From a virus: a DNA stretch of 64,000 bases. Position numbers and translations under genes: made by a program. The notes beneath the pieces are model-generated. The model did no database searches. It had not been told where the DNA came from and worked only from the letters and a program-made list of their open reading frames with translations. The stretch is taken from positions 32,001 to 96,000 of the IMG/VR virus record IMGVR_UViG_3300040801_002290. One strand, 5' to 3'. Every line of letters begins with the position of its first letter. Position 1 is the first letter of the stretch. This document shows positions 1 to 4,535 of this stretch, piece after piece.

Positions 1-51
1 CAACGCGATTGAGTCTGTCTCAAGTAGAGAGTCGTCCCACCTCTTGGCCAT
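1..51 (-). CDS. Hypothetical protein, 5' part only (MAKRWDDSLLETDSIAL..., runs off window)
   Basis: ATG at 51-49 with AGGAGG SD upstream; frame open to base 1. Confidence 0.55.
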   Translation of the reverse strand, partial: MAKRWDDSLLETDSIAL

Positions 52-81
52 ATTATACCTCCTAAACTTGTTCCTGAGTGT

Positions 82-603
82 TCAATCGTCACTGATGGAA
101 TCCAGGAAAATTCTGTTCCAATCTGAGTGTTCGTGAATTCCGAACATGTGTTCTAAAAAGGCAAGCGCCTTCCTGTATCGGGCCATTAAACTACCATTAA
201 AGTCATCATACGGTGTAGACAAATGGTCCTTCAAGTCTGCCATCTTTACATCCACGGCTATTCTGTTTCTATATGCGTAGATTCTTTCTATATATTGCCT
301 ATAGGACATGTTTTTGGGCCGAGTAAGTAACCATAGAGCCTGAATCTCGTCATCTTCAAGTAAAGGAAACGTTCTCTTCATTTCTTCCGGGTCCTCTGTT
401 GGATGAACATCCTCAAAGTAATCGTGAAGAATGGCAACTGGCATGTTTTCATTATCTACCAAACCAGCCACCCTAAAAAGATGTTGAATATAAGGTTTTC
501 CTCTTTTATCGAACTGCCTATAATGACCACGCATAGCGAATGAGACGCATTTTTGCAACTTAACGTCAAACTCACTTAAGGTGTAAGAATCAGCCATGTA
601 CAT
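82..603 (-). CDS. HD-domain protein, RelA/SpoT hydrolase-like (small alarmone hydrolase type)
   Basis: KPYIQHLFRVA, AILHDYFED, VKMADLKDHL motifs. Confidence 0.75.
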   Translation of the reverse strand: MYMADSYTLSEFDVKLQKCVSFAMRGHYRQFDKRGKPYIQHLFRVAGLVDNENMPVAILHDYFEDVHPTEDPEEMKRTFPLLEDDEIQALWLLTRPKNMSYRQYIERIYAYRNRIAVDVKMADLKDHLSTPYDDFNGSLMARYRKALAFLEHMFGIHEHSDWNRIFLDSISDD

Positions 604-649
604 CTCTCCAATATTAATTCACAACTCATTATTTTACCATTTCAATATG

Positions 650-675
650 AAAGGCGGGTTATTAGGCCCGCCTTT
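650..675. terminator. Intrinsic terminator downstream of the TROVE gene
   Basis: AAAGGCGGG-N8-CCCGCCTTT inverted repeat just after the TROVE stop. Confidence 0.75.
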
Positions 676-695
676 ATTTTAGCTCAAAGTGACTT

Positions 696-2243
696 TTAGT
701 AACTTTCGATGTACTTGACTAGGCTGCCCTCGGAAAGCATGGACATAAGCTTGAGTGTGGAGTCTGACCAACCTCCGATGGAGTAAAACTTGCCCCCAAC
801 CCTGGACATCTGAGCCTCGTAAGCCGCTAGGTTTACGGAGTAAGCAGTGCCAGTGTAGCCCTTAAGGGCATGGAAAATCTGGTCATGAATTTGCATGTCG
901 GAGAAAACAACGATGTTGTCGAAGTCCCTAACATTAACCTTAGAGAAGGCCACACTCATGTTGGTGCCGTATCCAAGCCTGTTGCGTAGGTTGCTATCCT
1001 TTAGTCGTGCCTGGTTAGCAAGAATACTGTTATTCTTGTTAAGTTCAACACGCTCTGCGGTAGTACCGAAGCAAACAACTTCTCCGTTTTGTGAGCGGTG
1101 CATAGCAGCCCCAAAAAGAGTACCAATATCAACGTAGGAAATCTCAGACTTGTCGCTAACAGTCGCGTCCATGGACCCAGACGTGTCAACAACGATTAGA
1201 GTTCTACCTTCGAAGGTTGGTAGGTTTCCGATAGAAGCGTCAAGGGCTTCGGATAGGGCGTTAGAGATTAATGCATAGCGGTCGTGGTCTCTAAACCCAG
1301 TAGAAGCTTCGCTCCAGTAATATCTACTTTCCGAACCAGAAATAGCTCGATGAGCAGAAAGGAACCGGAAAGGTAGCTGCCTAGACTTAGCTACTGCCTC
1401 AGGGTCAGCTAGCCTGTTAGCGACTAGATTCCAAAAGTCCTTGTCGGAAGCAGGAACCTTCTCAAAAAAGTTACGTAGGTTACGAAGTAGGGCCATGTAA
1501 CCCATGTTGTCCACAACGGACTCCCAGGACGCACCAGCACTACGGCTGCGTTCCCAACTAATTTCCCCGCTATCCTCAGAACCATTTACGGCCTTTAGAA
1601 TAACTGGTAGCAGAGCCCGAGCTTCGTCGGGAAGCTTTTCCCAAGCTGCGGAAAGGCTGCCTTCGCTCTTCCAAAGAAGAACAAAATCGAACAGGGCACG
1701 CTTTTCAGCAGTAGACTCAGCCCTTGCGTGAGTAATACGAATTGCCTTGGCAAGGTTCCAGTCTCGGCTAAAGTTGTTGTAACGAAGTGCGGCACGCTCG
1801 GTTAGACGGTCCTGTAGAATAGCGCGACCGAATCTAACAGCAGAAGGAATTACCTTCTTATTGTCGGAAAAAGAAGCTACGGTGGCTAGATAGTCACCAA
1901 TTTCATCACCACGGAAGAACACGTCACGAATTACACGACCATCCTGTGGCTGGCCATGCTCTAGCGTGTAGAAGCCCATAAGAGCGGCAGGCGTAGTACG
2001 CATGTTAAACTCTTGTCGAGCCACACGAGCTAGCTGGGAAACGAAGTTCTTAGGTGCCTTGGCGACAAGCGCCTGCATACGAGAAACTGTGTCGCTAGAC
2101 CTCTCGTAAAAGCTATCACTAAGGAAGCTAGAAAGAGCAAGCATGGCAAGCTCTTCGCGGACCTCAGCCTTACGGCCTACTCCACCTTCGTGTGTAACCA
2201 TCTGAGTTACGCGCCTTGGACGTGCTGTATTTAGTACACTCAT
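696..2243 (-). CDS. rsr: Ro60/Rsr-like TROVE-vWA ribonucleoprotein
   Basis: N-term THEGG; YMALLRNLRN, SRQLPFRFLSA; C-term vWA DTSGSM, GTN, FSDMQ; AAGGAG SD. Confidence 0.92.
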   Translation of the reverse strand: MSVLNTARPRRVTQMVTHEGGVGRKAEVREELAMLALSSFLSDSFYERSSDTVSRMQALVAKAPKNFVSQLARVARQEFNMRTTPAALMGFYTLEHGQPQDGRVIRDVFFRGDEIGDYLATVASFSDNKKVIPSAVRFGRAILQDRLTERAALRYNNFSRDWNLAKAIRITHARAESTAEKRALFDFVLLWKSEGSLSAAWEKLPDEARALLPVILKAVNGSEDSGEISWERSRSAGASWESVVDNMGYMALLRNLRNFFEKVPASDKDFWNLVANRLADPEAVAKSRQLPFRFLSAHRAISGSESRYYWSEASTGFRDHDRYALISNALSEALDASIGNLPTFEGRTLIVVDTSGSMDATVSDKSEISYVDIGTLFGAAMHRSQNGEVVCFGTTAERVELNKNNSILANQARLKDSNLRNRLGYGTNMSVAFSKVNVRDFDNIVVFSDMQIHDQIFHALKGYTGTAYSVNLAAYEAQMSRVGGKFYSIGGWSDSTLKLMSMLSEGSLVKYIESY

Positions 2244-2286
2244 AATCTTTCTCCTTTGCTGCTACCCTAATGGGCATAGAAAAACG

Positions 2287-2395
2287 GTGACAAGGACTGT
2301 GTATCCTCGACACCGTTAGAGTAACATATGTATCTTAGAGTAGGATGAGAGGTCGGTGTTTTTCGCCAATGAAGTAACCGAAAACTCTGGCTGCT
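2287..2395 (-). ncRNA. Candidate Ro-associated (Y-RNA-like) RNA, unit A
   Basis: AGCAGCCA-N11-TACTTCAT-N74-CTTGTCAC on the minus strand; the same three 8-mers occur in unit B; non-coding; directly upstream of rsr. Confidence 0.6.
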
Positions 2396-2483
2396 AAGAT
2401 TTTTAAAATTGGTTTACCCCGAAGGGCCGGTTTGCGGGCTGTTTACGAATGCCTGCGAGTGTAAGCATACAAGAGACTACGAT

Positions 2484-2593
2484 GGGGTTGCAAAAAAAGT
2501 TGCAGGGCTTACTTCCAACCCTCGCCTATAGTGAGGAATCTCCTCTCCATGAGTGACAAGTTTCTGTATGAAGTAGGCAACCCCGTGGCTGCT
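2484..2593 (-). ncRNA. Candidate Ro-associated RNA, unit B (41-nt core 2553-2593 plus complementary 3' extension)
   Basis: AGCAGCCA-N10-TACTTCAT-N7-CTTGTCAC; GGGGTTGC pairs with GCAACCCC at 2491-2484. Confidence 0.5.
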
Positions 2594-2610
2594 TTGCTCT
2601 TACAAGACGT

Positions 2611-2639
2611 ATAGTAGCATATTCTCTACTCTATGTCAA
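2611..2639 (-). promoter_or_regulatory. Sigma70-type promoter for the ncRNA-rsr transcript
   Basis: TTGACA (2639-2634), 17 bp spacer, TGc-TACTAT (2616-2611). Confidence 0.8.
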
Positions 2640-2961
2640 CCCCTTCGTGCTTTTGGTTGATTTTTTCTGCCAGCCCGGACAAAAGCTCTCGCTCTCTTTT
2701 GGTAAGTTTAGGATAAAACCCCACCAAAACACTAGACTTTTTATTGGTTAGGAAGTAGACTCTCTTCTTAGGAACCTGTGGTATGACGGTTTTTAAAAAC
2801 TGGTCAACGCTTGAGAGCCCCAGTTTGTGGGTCCACTTAACCTTTTTGAAAAGCTTGTTATCTGAGTTCTCGGTTCCCTCTGGATGAATTTCGGTTATGA
2901 AGTAGGTAGTACCCTCATCAGAGTCAAGACTGTACTCGGTTATGTTTCTACTTTTACCCAC
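2626..2961 (-). CDS. Hypothetical protein
   Basis: 111-aa ORF, co-directional with neighbours. Confidence 0.6.
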   Translation of the reverse strand: MGKSRNITEYSLDSDEGTTYFITEIHPEGTENSDNKLFKKVKWTHKLGLSSVDQFLKTVIPQVPKKRVYFLTNKKSSVLVGFYPKLTKRERELLSGLAEKINQKHEGVDIE

Positions 2962-2969
2962 AGTAGCCC

Positions 2970-3239
2970 CTAGTTTGGCTGCTTAGGTAGAAGCTCTTCT
3001 TCCGATTCCTGAGCTTCCATCTTAGCAAGCATGTCCGAGGCTTGAGAGACTATCTCATAGCCAAGAACGGTTTCTATTGATGCTATAGCGATGTTGTTGT
3101 TCAACAGCGCACTAGCACTAGCTACATCTCCGTTTGAAGCTGATACTGCAAACATTCGATTATGGCTCTTTAACATCTGCTTTACCTGTTTCAAAAGAAA
3201 CACACTACTATCTAGGTAGTCTTTAAAATCTTTTTCCAT
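2970..3239 (-). CDS. Hypothetical protein, probably leaderless
   Basis: 89-aa ORF; TAGAAT (3250-3245) 5 nt before the ATG, no SD. Confidence 0.65.
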   Translation of the reverse strand: MEKDFKDYLDSSVFLLKQVKQMLKSHNRMFAVSASNGDVASASALLNNNIAIASIETVLGYEIVSQASDMLAKMEAQESEEELLPKQPN

Positions 3240-3333
3240 GAGTTATTCTAACCTGACCTTTCGTGAGAATGATGTGCTAACTTTTCTCATCGTCTATGTG
3301 ATATACTAACATATATTTAGATTGGGGACAACT

Positions 3334-3987
3334 ATGAAGCTAATACTGGAGTCTGACTTCTCAGACTACTACGACTACCAATTCGACGTAATAAAGACCC
3401 CAAGCGTACACCACATATATCGACGTAGCTCAAGGGACAGAACTCCTAGACTTGAGCTACTTAGTTATGTACGTGAGCAAATGGGTCTTTTGGTACCTGA
3501 ATTCGGAACTGTAAGAGAAGTGTCAGAGCGAGTAAGGTTTGATAAGTCAGGTAAACATCTAGTAGTTTACACCAACGAATTTTCTCACTTTGGAGACGGA
3601 AAAGAGAGAGTGGGTTTGAAAAGCGCGTTAAGTAGATTCCCACTCAAACCGTGTACTCTTTATATGCATCCCGACGAAAAGGCGCAGTCCTTCAAGTACG
3701 TGGCCGTGGGTCACGACATAAGATTTTTACTTCGATACACATCTAACCACGAGTGGAAATCTAACGTTGGTGACGTATCTATTGAGTTGGTTGAGTACAA
3801 GGGAGACAAACTTGTCTCTCATCATTACCCAATGTTTTCAATAGACTTTGTTGTGTCTAACGGGATTCCTTACGCCGTAGATTTTAATTCCTCTCCCAAA
3901 TTAATGGGAACACCGATTGAGGAACTTTTAGAGCCAGAAGAACTAATAGAGGAGATGAAAAGATGGATGATAGACTCGATGTCATAG
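3334..3987 (+). CDS. ATP-grasp fold protein
   Basis: C-term FSIDFVV...YAVDFNSSPKL ATP-grasp signature; ATG at 3334 preferred; TGaTATACT -10 box at 3302-3307. Confidence 0.6.
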   Translation: MKLILESDFSDYYDYQFDVIKTPSVHHIYRRSSRDRTPRLELLSYVREQMGLLVPEFGTVREVSERVRFDKSGKHLVVYTNEFSHFGDGKERVGLKSALSRFPLKPCTLYMHPDEKAQSFKYVAVGHDIRFLLRYTSNHEWKSNVGDVSIELVEYKGDKLVSHHYPMFSIDFVVSNGIPYAVDFNSSPKLMGTPIEELLEPEELIEEMKRWMIDSMS

Positions 3988-4535
3988 AGAGCCACGACAG
4001 CATTTTCGATGTTGAGGCAGACATGATAGTAAACCCAGTAAACTGTAAAGGCATCTCTGGTAAGGGATTGGCCTTGGAATTTAAGCATAAGTTTCCAGTG
4101 TGTCAGGCTAAATACGAGGAAATATGCAGGAGGGAAATATACATTAATGACCCAACTGGAACAAGGCGAAAGGTTCCAGCATTTAGACCGGGAGATATAC
4201 TTCACTTCATAGAGATAAGCAGAGATAGAATACCCAAGAATATAGCTGAAATGTCCCCCGAAGAGATTGATGGGCTACTTAGCAAGAGGCAGCACATAGT
4301 GTATCTGCCAACCAAAAATCACTGGAAGAACCCCTCTAAGTACGAATATGTGAGGGCCGGTCTAAAGTCCCTAAGGCAACTTTTGGATAAGGAAGGTCTA
4401 GAGGGAGTTCAGACCATAGCCATTCCAGCTTTGGGATGTGGTCTCGGTGGACTTAACTGGGAAGAGGTAAAGACTATTATTTTGGAGGAGTTGGGAAATA
4501 GCGGAAAAACTTTGATTCTATTTCCTCCAAAGTGA
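3963..4535 (+). CDS. Macrodomain protein, DarG-like ADP-ribosylhydrolase
   Basis: NPVNCKGISGKGLALEFK, LPTKNHWK, IAIPALGCGLGGLNW motifs. Confidence 0.85.
   Translation: MDDRLDVIESHDSIFDVEADMIVNPVNCKGISGKGLALEFKHKFPVCQAKYEEICRREIYINDPTGTRRKVPAFRPGDILHFIEISRDRIPKNIAEMSPEEIDGLLSKRQHIVYLPTKNHWKNPSKYEYVRAGLKSLRQLLDKEGLEGVQTIAIPALGCGLGGLNWEEVKTIILEELGNSGKTLILFPPK

Follow-up and report, generated by a model that had tools for sequence, protein, structure and literature searches.

The 64,000-nucleotide stretch of viral DNA analyzed here (the window; positions 32001-96000 of the 194,021-bp IMG/VR virus record IMGVR_UViG_3300040801_002290, termed G000, completeness about 97%) contains a separate noncoding RNA gene of ~325 nt at 2604-2278 on the minus strand, with its own promoter and terminator, upstream of the phage gene for Ro60 (rsr). 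We consider it likely that this gene encodes two Y RNAs of the YrlB type, which lack a tRNA-like domain and would be partners of the phage Ro60 protein encoded just downstream. The two units, A and B, would be divergent members of this known RNA type. A first-pass annotation, made from the sequence alone, had proposed a new class of Ro-binding RNA, a proposal that we do not follow: handle-only Y RNAs are known experimentally (YrlB in M. smegmatis and S. Typhimurium, Yrn2 in D. radiodurans (PMC4201824)), and we find them in 102 of 222 other Ro60 loci.

Our comparisons draw on one related genome, G001 (a 201,951-bp virus record), whose Ro60 is 48% identical and whose corresponding locus is termed L001; the window phage is termed W, and T denotes a third copy of the handle. 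The Ro60 clade of the window phage comprises 27 proteins with 42-88% identity. L001 was the sole clade member that we recovered by scanning contigs of viral, metagenome and genome origin, and neither the locus nor the RNA had a BLAST match among GenBank phages.

A separate noncoding RNA gene upstream of rsr

The sigma-70-type promoter of the gene (Table 1) has 10 of 12 matches and an extended -10 element (TG), is the top promoter-like site within positions 1-4000, and is kept in L001 as TTGACA-17-TATACT. It predicts a transcription start at about 2603-2605, and the rsr start codon lies about 361 nt 3' of a start near 2604. The first-pass annotation had reported this promoter, this start and a gap of ~360 nt before rsr, all of which are present. 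It had taken the stretch for an mRNA leader, a view that falls short. The stretch ends at an intrinsic terminator, whose hairpin folds with -20.4 kcal/mol (z -5.1; 200 shuffles yielded no equally good fold) and was overlooked by a simple scan because of its two bulges. L001 has an unrelated hairpin followed by a U tract at this position (z -3.9), and a 55-aa open reading frame (ORF), absent from the window, and about 170 nt intervene there between the terminator and rsr. The coding strand between promoter and terminator holds no ORF of at least 40 aa wholly inside, and the layout of L001 is identical. Its own promoter, the intrinsic terminator and the ORF before rsr in L001 thus define a separate noncoding gene rather than a plain mRNA leader. 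Expression of rsr probably depends on read-through of the terminator, located 40 nt upstream.

The 3' arm of the terminator, CCUUGUCACCGU (2284-2295, minus strand), matches the 3' strand of the handle in a canonical YrlA (L093:~2340-2352) at 12 of 12 nt, and the 5' arms of the two have AACGGU in common. The terminator might derive from a YrlA that collapsed, or the likeness may be a coincidence (rough chance about 0.03).

We searched public sequencing runs with positions 600-3400 and examined four runs in detail. Two metatranscriptome libraries, from two samples of one microbial-mat study, contain one contig each (2315-2597 and 2344-2591), with zero differences from the window. Both contigs span unit B, the linker and unit A, and they start at 2597 and 2591, near the predicted transcription start. 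Because RNA libraries can contain DNA, these contigs are a hint of transcription, not proof. The RNA runs X12 and X13 have no contig over rsr or the upstream ORFs, and such missing coverage is not evidence. Sediment runs contain DNA contigs of relatives, in which the RNA stretch diverges by 1.5-1.8%, compared with 3.6-10% in the flanking genes. The indels of these relatives (at 2264, 2271, 2317, 2323/2324, 2352, 2405 and 2412) all fall outside the modeled helices P1 and P2 of the units described below, those at 2264 and 2271 being located downstream of the terminator, and some of the contigs match 2303-2404 only, i.e. unit A.

Table 1. Location of the RNA gene, its parts, rsr and related features; positions are those of the window unless another record is named.
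Feature	Position	Strand	Description
Sigma-70-type promoter	2611-2639	minus	TTGACA 2639-2634, 17-nt spacer, TGc-TACTAT 2619-2611
Unit B	2468-2604	minus	Y-RNA-like domain, 137 nt: P1, 5' box, P2, UACUUC, cargo
Unit B, P1	2604-2597 and 2475-2468	minus	UGUAAGAG pairs with CUCUUGUA
Unit B, 5' box	2593-2586	minus	AGCAGCCA
Unit B, P2	2584-2577 and 2491-2484	minus	GGGGUUGC pairs with GCAACCCC
Unit B, second octamer	2575-2568	minus	TACTTCAT; UACUUC box 2575-2570
Unit B, cargo	2569-2492	minus	78 nt, not tRNA-like
CTTGTCAC copy in unit B cargo	2553-2560	minus	not conserved in L001
Linker between units	2401-2467	minus	CCC-UUCG-GGG hairpin and A/U-rich stretch AAUUUUAAAAAU
Unit A	2332-2400	minus	minimal YrlB-type RNA, 69 nt: P1, box, P2, UACUUC, loop
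Unit A, P1	2400-2394 and 2338-2332	minus	AUCUUAG pairs with CUAAGAU
Unit A, 5' box	2395-2388	minus	AGCAGCCA
Unit A, extra helix	2387-2385 and 2351-2349	minus	GAG pairs with CUC
Unit A, P2	2381-2377 and 2357-2353	minus	UCGGU pairs with ACCGA
Unit A, second octamer	2376-2369	minus	TACTTCAT; UACUUC 2376-2371
Unit A, loop		minus	AUUGGCGAAAAAC, 13 nt, A-rich
Intrinsic terminator	2278-2317	minus	hairpin AACGGUG-U-CGAGGAU / GUCCUUG-U-CACCGUU (2317-2283), then UUUUUCU
CTTGTCAC copy assigned to unit A	2294-2287	minus	3' arm of the terminator hairpin
rsr, phage Ro60	696-2243	minus	515 aa; TROVE, vWA_Ro60, PHROG 850; ATG at 2243; ribosome binding site GGAG at 2254-2251
HD-type phosphohydrolase gene	82-603	minus	directly 3' of rsr
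RtcB RNA ligase gene	G000:C1:29068-30207	minus	2.5 kb downstream of rsr
tRNA array of G000	G000:C1:379-14210		about 28 genes
Unit T, YrlA-like RNA	G000:C1:10309-10433 = L165:1501-1625	minus	outside the window; handle with T, V and D arms
Unit T, handle	C1:10405-10428	minus	AGCAGCCA...UACUUC
ORF before rsr in L001	L001:2830-2998	plus	55 aa
Third handle copy of G001	L179:19380-19496	minus	AGCAACCA-AGACUCCGG-UACUUC, P2 partner CCGGGGUUU
tRNA array of G001	G001:C1:50720-66250		about 30 genes
RtcB match of G001	G001:C1:78499-80754	minus	two pieces inside one 797-aa open frame

A common handle in six units of two phages

The anatomy of the units, their conservation and covariation, the handle that they have in common and their presence in RNA libraries are directly observed. 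All units follow one plan, which runs from the 5' strand of the closing helix (P1) through a 5' box, the 5' strand of an inner helix (P2), UACUUC, a cargo, the 3' strand of P2 and a joining loop to the 3' strand of P1. Units A and B have the bipartite motif AGCARCCA-N9-11-UACUUC in common, whose spacing of 10-11 nt is kept in both units of L001 while the surrounding RNA has diverged. Searching both genomes for AGCARCCA-N8-13-UACUUC, we find exactly three copies in G000 and three in G001, compared with about 0.02 expected. The 5' strand of P2 is supplied by the motif's spacer, which pairs with a downstream segment in all six units (over 8-9 bp in four of them) and is directly followed by UACUUC in each. 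In unit B of L001, P2 is formed by GAAGUCGC and GCGACUUC, which differ from unit B of W at three of 8 bp, each time by a compensatory double change. UACUUC is extended by CAU in units A and B of W, and by GAU in units A and B of L001.

In unit A, the P1 pairing is preserved in L001 by a paired U/G insertion, P2 of L001 is formed by UUCGGU and ACCGAA, and the fold is predicted alike in the two phages (z -2.9 and -2.1). The loop of unit A in W contains GGCGAAAAAC, which is not conserved in unit A of L001. The octamer UACUCUAA is found twice, 19 nt apart, at 2342-2335 (3' strand of P1 of unit A) and at 2323-2316 (just before the terminator), and the second copy is a possible alternative pairing partner.

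Unit B begins at the predicted 5' end of the RNA with a plausible P1. Its P2 is included in the unconstrained minimum free energy structure of a 145-nt fragment, and the pairing GCAACCCC/GGGGTTGC is found in this unit; GCAACCCC has two possible partners, GGGGUUGC in P2 or GGGUUGG at 2523-2517. Within the cargo of unit B, the hairpin loop UGGAAGUAA (2503-2522, minus strand) has 7-bp complementarity to UUACUUC of unit A and 6-bp complementarity to UACUUC of unit B, and is not conserved in L001; the loop sequence GAAGUAAG, complementary to UUACUUC, was set aside as not conserved in L001. The linker between the units, at whose position L001 also has hairpins and an A/U-rich stretch and where relatives carry insertions (2405 and 2412), may be a processing site.

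The first-pass annotation had described the units by three octamers in the same order (AGCAGCCA, TACTTCAT and CTTGTCAC), with spacers of 10 and 7 nt in unit B and of 11 and 74 nt in unit A. These spacings are correct, and the first two octamers are real and conserved in L001. The third does not define the unit, because it is absent from the L001 RNA and because its unit A copy is an arm of the terminator; the copy in the unit B cargo is probably a chance repeat. The observation was thus accurate yet only partly meaningful, as two of its three motifs are real, and with the third discounted the boundaries of the units were redrawn to those given in Table 1. The idea that the units keep Ro-binding ends and replace or delete the effector domain is supported with regard to the handle and to the absence of the tRNA-like domain, but not with regard to CTTGTCAC as a conserved end.

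Units A and B contain no T loop, as had been noted, and they yield no Rfam match at E ≤ 10, neither to YrlA nor to tRNA, and no ARAGORN call. While the tRNA-like domain is absent from these units, the genome itself does have a tRNA-like Y RNA with the same handle. This unit T directly follows a tRNA in the tRNA array of the phage and shares its strand with rsr, from which it is 24 kb away. Its P2 is formed by UGAGUGAG and CUCAUUCA, P1 is short, and the order of its remaining parts is permuted as in YrlA, with a T arm (CCAGGUUCGAAUCCUGG), a V arm and then a D arm that is close to the one of the neighboring tRNA. It aligns full-length to Rfam YrlA (positions 1-114) with 19.2 bits (gathering threshold, 69) and is not called by the tRNA model. 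The third copy in G001 is intergenic, 16 nt away from the 154-aa ORF that precedes it, and its cargo is a short hairpin without a T arm; a search of G001 for YrlA-like RNA returned none apart from tRNA pairs. Weak YrlA matches at 12.0-12.5 kb of G000 and 63.9-64.5 kb of G001 were rejected as adjacent tRNA pairs, and a model of the handle plus T arm (R2) matched every tRNA and was uninformative on unit T. Both phages have a single tRNA array, far from rsr. In Arthrobacter phage Atuin (194 kb), the Ro60 gene is located within the tRNA array, with a YrlA-like match adjoining.

Phage Ro60 and handles at other Ro60 loci

The rsr product is a genuine Ro60, with matches to Pfam TROVE (3.9e-17) and vWA_Ro60 and also to PHROG 850 (RNA-binding protein), so that the Y-RNA-like units do stand next to a Ro60 gene, as the first-pass annotation had it. 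The nearest solved structure is Ro60 of Thermus phage phiLo (9KOP/9L5Y, E 2e-48), whose basic residues K141, R173, R178 and K193, in contact with Yrl2 there (PMC12135203), align with conserved Arg/Lys residues in the clade of the window phage.

We compared the units with a census set of 222 non-redundant other Ro60 loci (from L005-L163 and L190-L269). A sub-threshold YrlA-like match is found just upstream of Ro60 in nine of ten sampled loci, and the tenth (L092) has tRNA-model matches there. Exact UACUUC precedes a T loop by 8-60 nt on the Ro60 strand in 164 of the 222 loci. The consensus handle of these loci is CCCGGUGCG(C/A)AGG-N3-(C/G)GGU-UACUUC (an example of a 5' part is GGUGCGAAGG-UAACGGU-UACUUC), with UACUUC in the same position as in our six units. 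This identifies UACUUC as a box conserved in YrlA-family handles of actinobacteria and phages, located at the structural position seen here, and the YrlA features given in the first-pass annotation are correct. The 5' box is most commonly GCGCAGG (109 loci), followed by GCGAAGG (41), and the CGAA motif regarded as the Ro60 contact (CGAA/GNCGAA; PMC4201824, PMC12135203) is thus not universal. Rfam YrlA at its threshold misses most phage and actinobacterial YrlAs (0 of 20 loci matched).

Scoring these loci against a canonical-handle weight matrix at a 20-bit threshold, we located 247 handles followed by a T loop and 125 without a T loop, the latter in 102 loci, compared with 2 on the control strand. 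The 153 loci with full flanks include 77 with both kinds, 51 with tRNA-like units only, 11 with handle-only units only, and 14 with neither. The handle-only units are hairpins of 57-75 nt (consensus CCCGGUGCGAAGG..CGGUUACUUC...GAUCUCGGG), often located just upstream of the YrlA-like unit, and Rfam holds no model for them. Their loops often end with GAAAAC before the 3' strand of P2, and so do those of unit A of W (GGCGAAAAAC-ACCGA) and unit B of L001 (GCGAAAAACC-GCGAC). We also built a covariance model from 35 canonical handle-only units found at other Ro60 loci; its sole match at E ≤ 10 in 94.6 kb is weak and lies in unit A (11.5 bits, E = 3; none in unit B). When the leader alone is searched, unit A has an E value of 0.012, and unit A of L001 aligns over the full model (8.7 bits, E 0.055). 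We regard the match to unit A as suggestive. Allowing one mismatch per half of the bipartite motif, we obtained 71 matches in about 1.8 Mb of Ro60 loci and 71 in the reversed control, and thus no evidence of diverged copies elsewhere.

The units resemble the YrlB/Yrn2 type (Chen et al. 2014, PMC4201824) in that they are located upstream of rsr on the same strand together with another Y RNA, and in that they share their handle with the genome's own tRNA-like Y RNA while lacking a full tRNA-like domain. They differ in their 5' box, AGCARCCA(G) rather than GNCGAA-type, in the location of the tRNA-like paralogue, which is found in the tRNA array 24 kb away (and not at all in G001), and in the 48-78-nt cargo of unit B. 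With YrlA (RF02553; bacteria, mycobacteriophages) they have the P1-box-P2 handle and UACUUC after the helix strand in common, but units A and B are without T or D arm. The RNAs Yrl1 and Yrl2 of phiLo set a phage precedent (Hu et al. 2025, PMC12135203): there, too, a pair of RNAs immediately precedes a phage Ro60 gene, and these have a stem-bulge-stem fold and no tRNA-like domain described. They were picked by the CGAA motif, which is absent at the equivalent position in the window, and they bind phiRo60 and PNPase in vitro. Like the Dictyostelium Class I RNAs (PMC7919456), the units have a short end-to-end helix, a single-stranded box (CAGCAA there, CAGCCA here) and variable cargo, but the window handle adds a second helix and the UACUUC box. 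Kinship to these ACAGCAA-handle RNAs is unsupported: RF01414 has no match at E ≤ 10 (the box here reads CAGCCA or CAACCA), and ACAGCAA is not enriched in the genome of the window phage (24 copies, 23.7 expected). Rfam PhotoRC-I, Mahella-1 and other weak matches to the leader were rejected as far under threshold.

Among the neighboring genes, an RtcB RNA ligase is encoded downstream of rsr on the same strand, an arrangement that recalls bacterial rsr-Y RNA-rtcB loci. The interrupted RtcB match of G001 (Table 1) suggests an inserted element, e.g. an intein. The gene directly 3' of rsr encodes an HD-type metal-dependent phosphohydrolase (PHROG 990, 3e-26), with no Pfam match at E 0.01.

Interpretation and alternatives

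From the handle and its setting we conclude that units A and B are probably YrlB-type Y RNAs with a diverged 5' box that lacks CGAA, and we infer their binding to Ro60, their processing and their function. Each unit carries a handle of the YrlA/YrlB family: P1 closes it, the 5' box AGCARCCA(G) follows, the 9-11-nt spacer supplies the 5' strand of P2, and UACUUC tops this second helix. If the structures of Xenopus Ro60-Y RNA and phiLo Ro60-Yrl2 are a guide, the outer surface of Ro60 would bind this handle mainly by its 5' strand, and phage Ro60 would hold unit T, like A and B, through the common handle. The cargo differs from unit to unit, being an A-rich 13-nt loop in A, a non-tRNA structure of 78 nt in B and a permuted tRNA-like structure in T. 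Y RNAs control access to the Ro60 cavity and link Ro60 to effectors, PNPase among them (PMC4201824), and phiLo Ro60 together with its Yrl RNAs attenuates host PNPase (PMC12135203), a precedent for the suggestion of the first-pass annotation that the window RNAs could redirect or jam host PNPase or RtcB. During infection, the RNAs described here may likewise act as a gate, as a tether to effectors like PNPase, or as both, and the production of rsr by read-through of the terminator would keep the RNA in excess over the protein.

Several points weigh against this assignment. The equivalent of the GNCGAAN0-1G/CGAA motif reads AGCARCCA(G) in all six units, without CGAA; compared with a canonical handle (GGUGCGCAGG...UACUUC), the window box retains only the ...CAG(G) end. 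P1 is uncertain in unit B and in the third unit of G001, and the hairpins of unit B are thermodynamically ordinary. The covariation rests on two orthologues and three paralogues, since one related genome was read. In the genome-wide weight matrix search, the best of the window units score 11.4-11.6 bits, compared with up to 13.8 for random sites and a training median of 23.3. The covariance-model scores (8.7-11.5 bits) are weak, and the YrlA score of unit T is far under the Rfam threshold.

The units could instead be real structured RNAs that are not partners of Ro60, for example regulators with UACUUC as seed or ligands of another protein, placed beside rsr by chance or operon history. The missing CGAA contact would fit such RNAs, as would the CAU/GAU extension, which is uniform within each genome, as concerted evolution with a common partner would make it. 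However, the same box, in the same place and architecture, recurs in the YrlA-like RNAs that adjoin Ro60 genes at 164 of 222 loci, two of the three units stay beside rsr in both phages, and unit T has the architecture of YrlA. We therefore judge such an origin improbable.

We see little likelihood, too, in a leader that acts in cis as an attenuator, in which Ro60 or another factor would bind the handles and set read-through of the 2317-2278 terminator, with autoregulation as the main purpose. The terminator is so close to the rsr start that another promoter cannot fit, the handles are just upstream, and the repeated UACUCUAA offers an alternative P1 partner near the terminator. Yet we find no antiterminator pairing that overlaps the terminator stem, an ORF separates terminator and rsr in L001, and unit T, which has the same handle, cannot act on rsr in cis from a tRNA operon 24 kb away. 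In M. smegmatis, moreover, YrlA and YrlB upstream of rsr are made as one precursor and processed into free Rsr-bound RNAs (PMC4201824).

That the repeats arose by chance in an ordinary intergenic region or untranslated leader is very improbable: repeated octamers in the 363-nt leader are marginally above shuffles (4 distinct, shuffle mean 0.94, P(≥4) = 0.05) and the third octamer looks like chance, but motif and spacing persist at only 48% Ro60 identity between the phages, in an RNA that has otherwise diverged, with three compensatory changes, just three copies per genome and RNA-library contigs over the region.

Within the reading of A and B as YrlB-type partners of Ro60, a bolder version seems to us unlikely, namely that the AGCARCCAG box (in place of GYGMAGG/CGAA) has co-evolved with phage Ro60 as a private pairing and that the ~325-nt RNA remains unprocessed as a scaffold with two handles. 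If the pairing were private, phage Ro60 would take phage Y RNAs only, and host Rsr would not bind them. If the RNA were a scaffold, two Ro60 rings would be held together with the unit B cargo in a bivalent Y RNA, which to our knowledge has not been described before.

The mechanism of Ro60 with Y RNA is itself already known, and our analysis adds to these systems a phage lineage with about 28 tRNAs, RtcB and Ro60. The tRNA-like Y RNA of this lineage would have relocated to the tRNA operon (none being found in the relative), and the handle-only Y RNAs hold the place beside rsr. UACUUC and the P1-box-P2 layout mark the Y RNA family better than CGAA does, with a 5' box that can change and thereby gives a direct test of what Ro60 reads. 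The census points to YrlB-type RNAs as a regular component of Ro60 systems, beyond the few species in which they were known.

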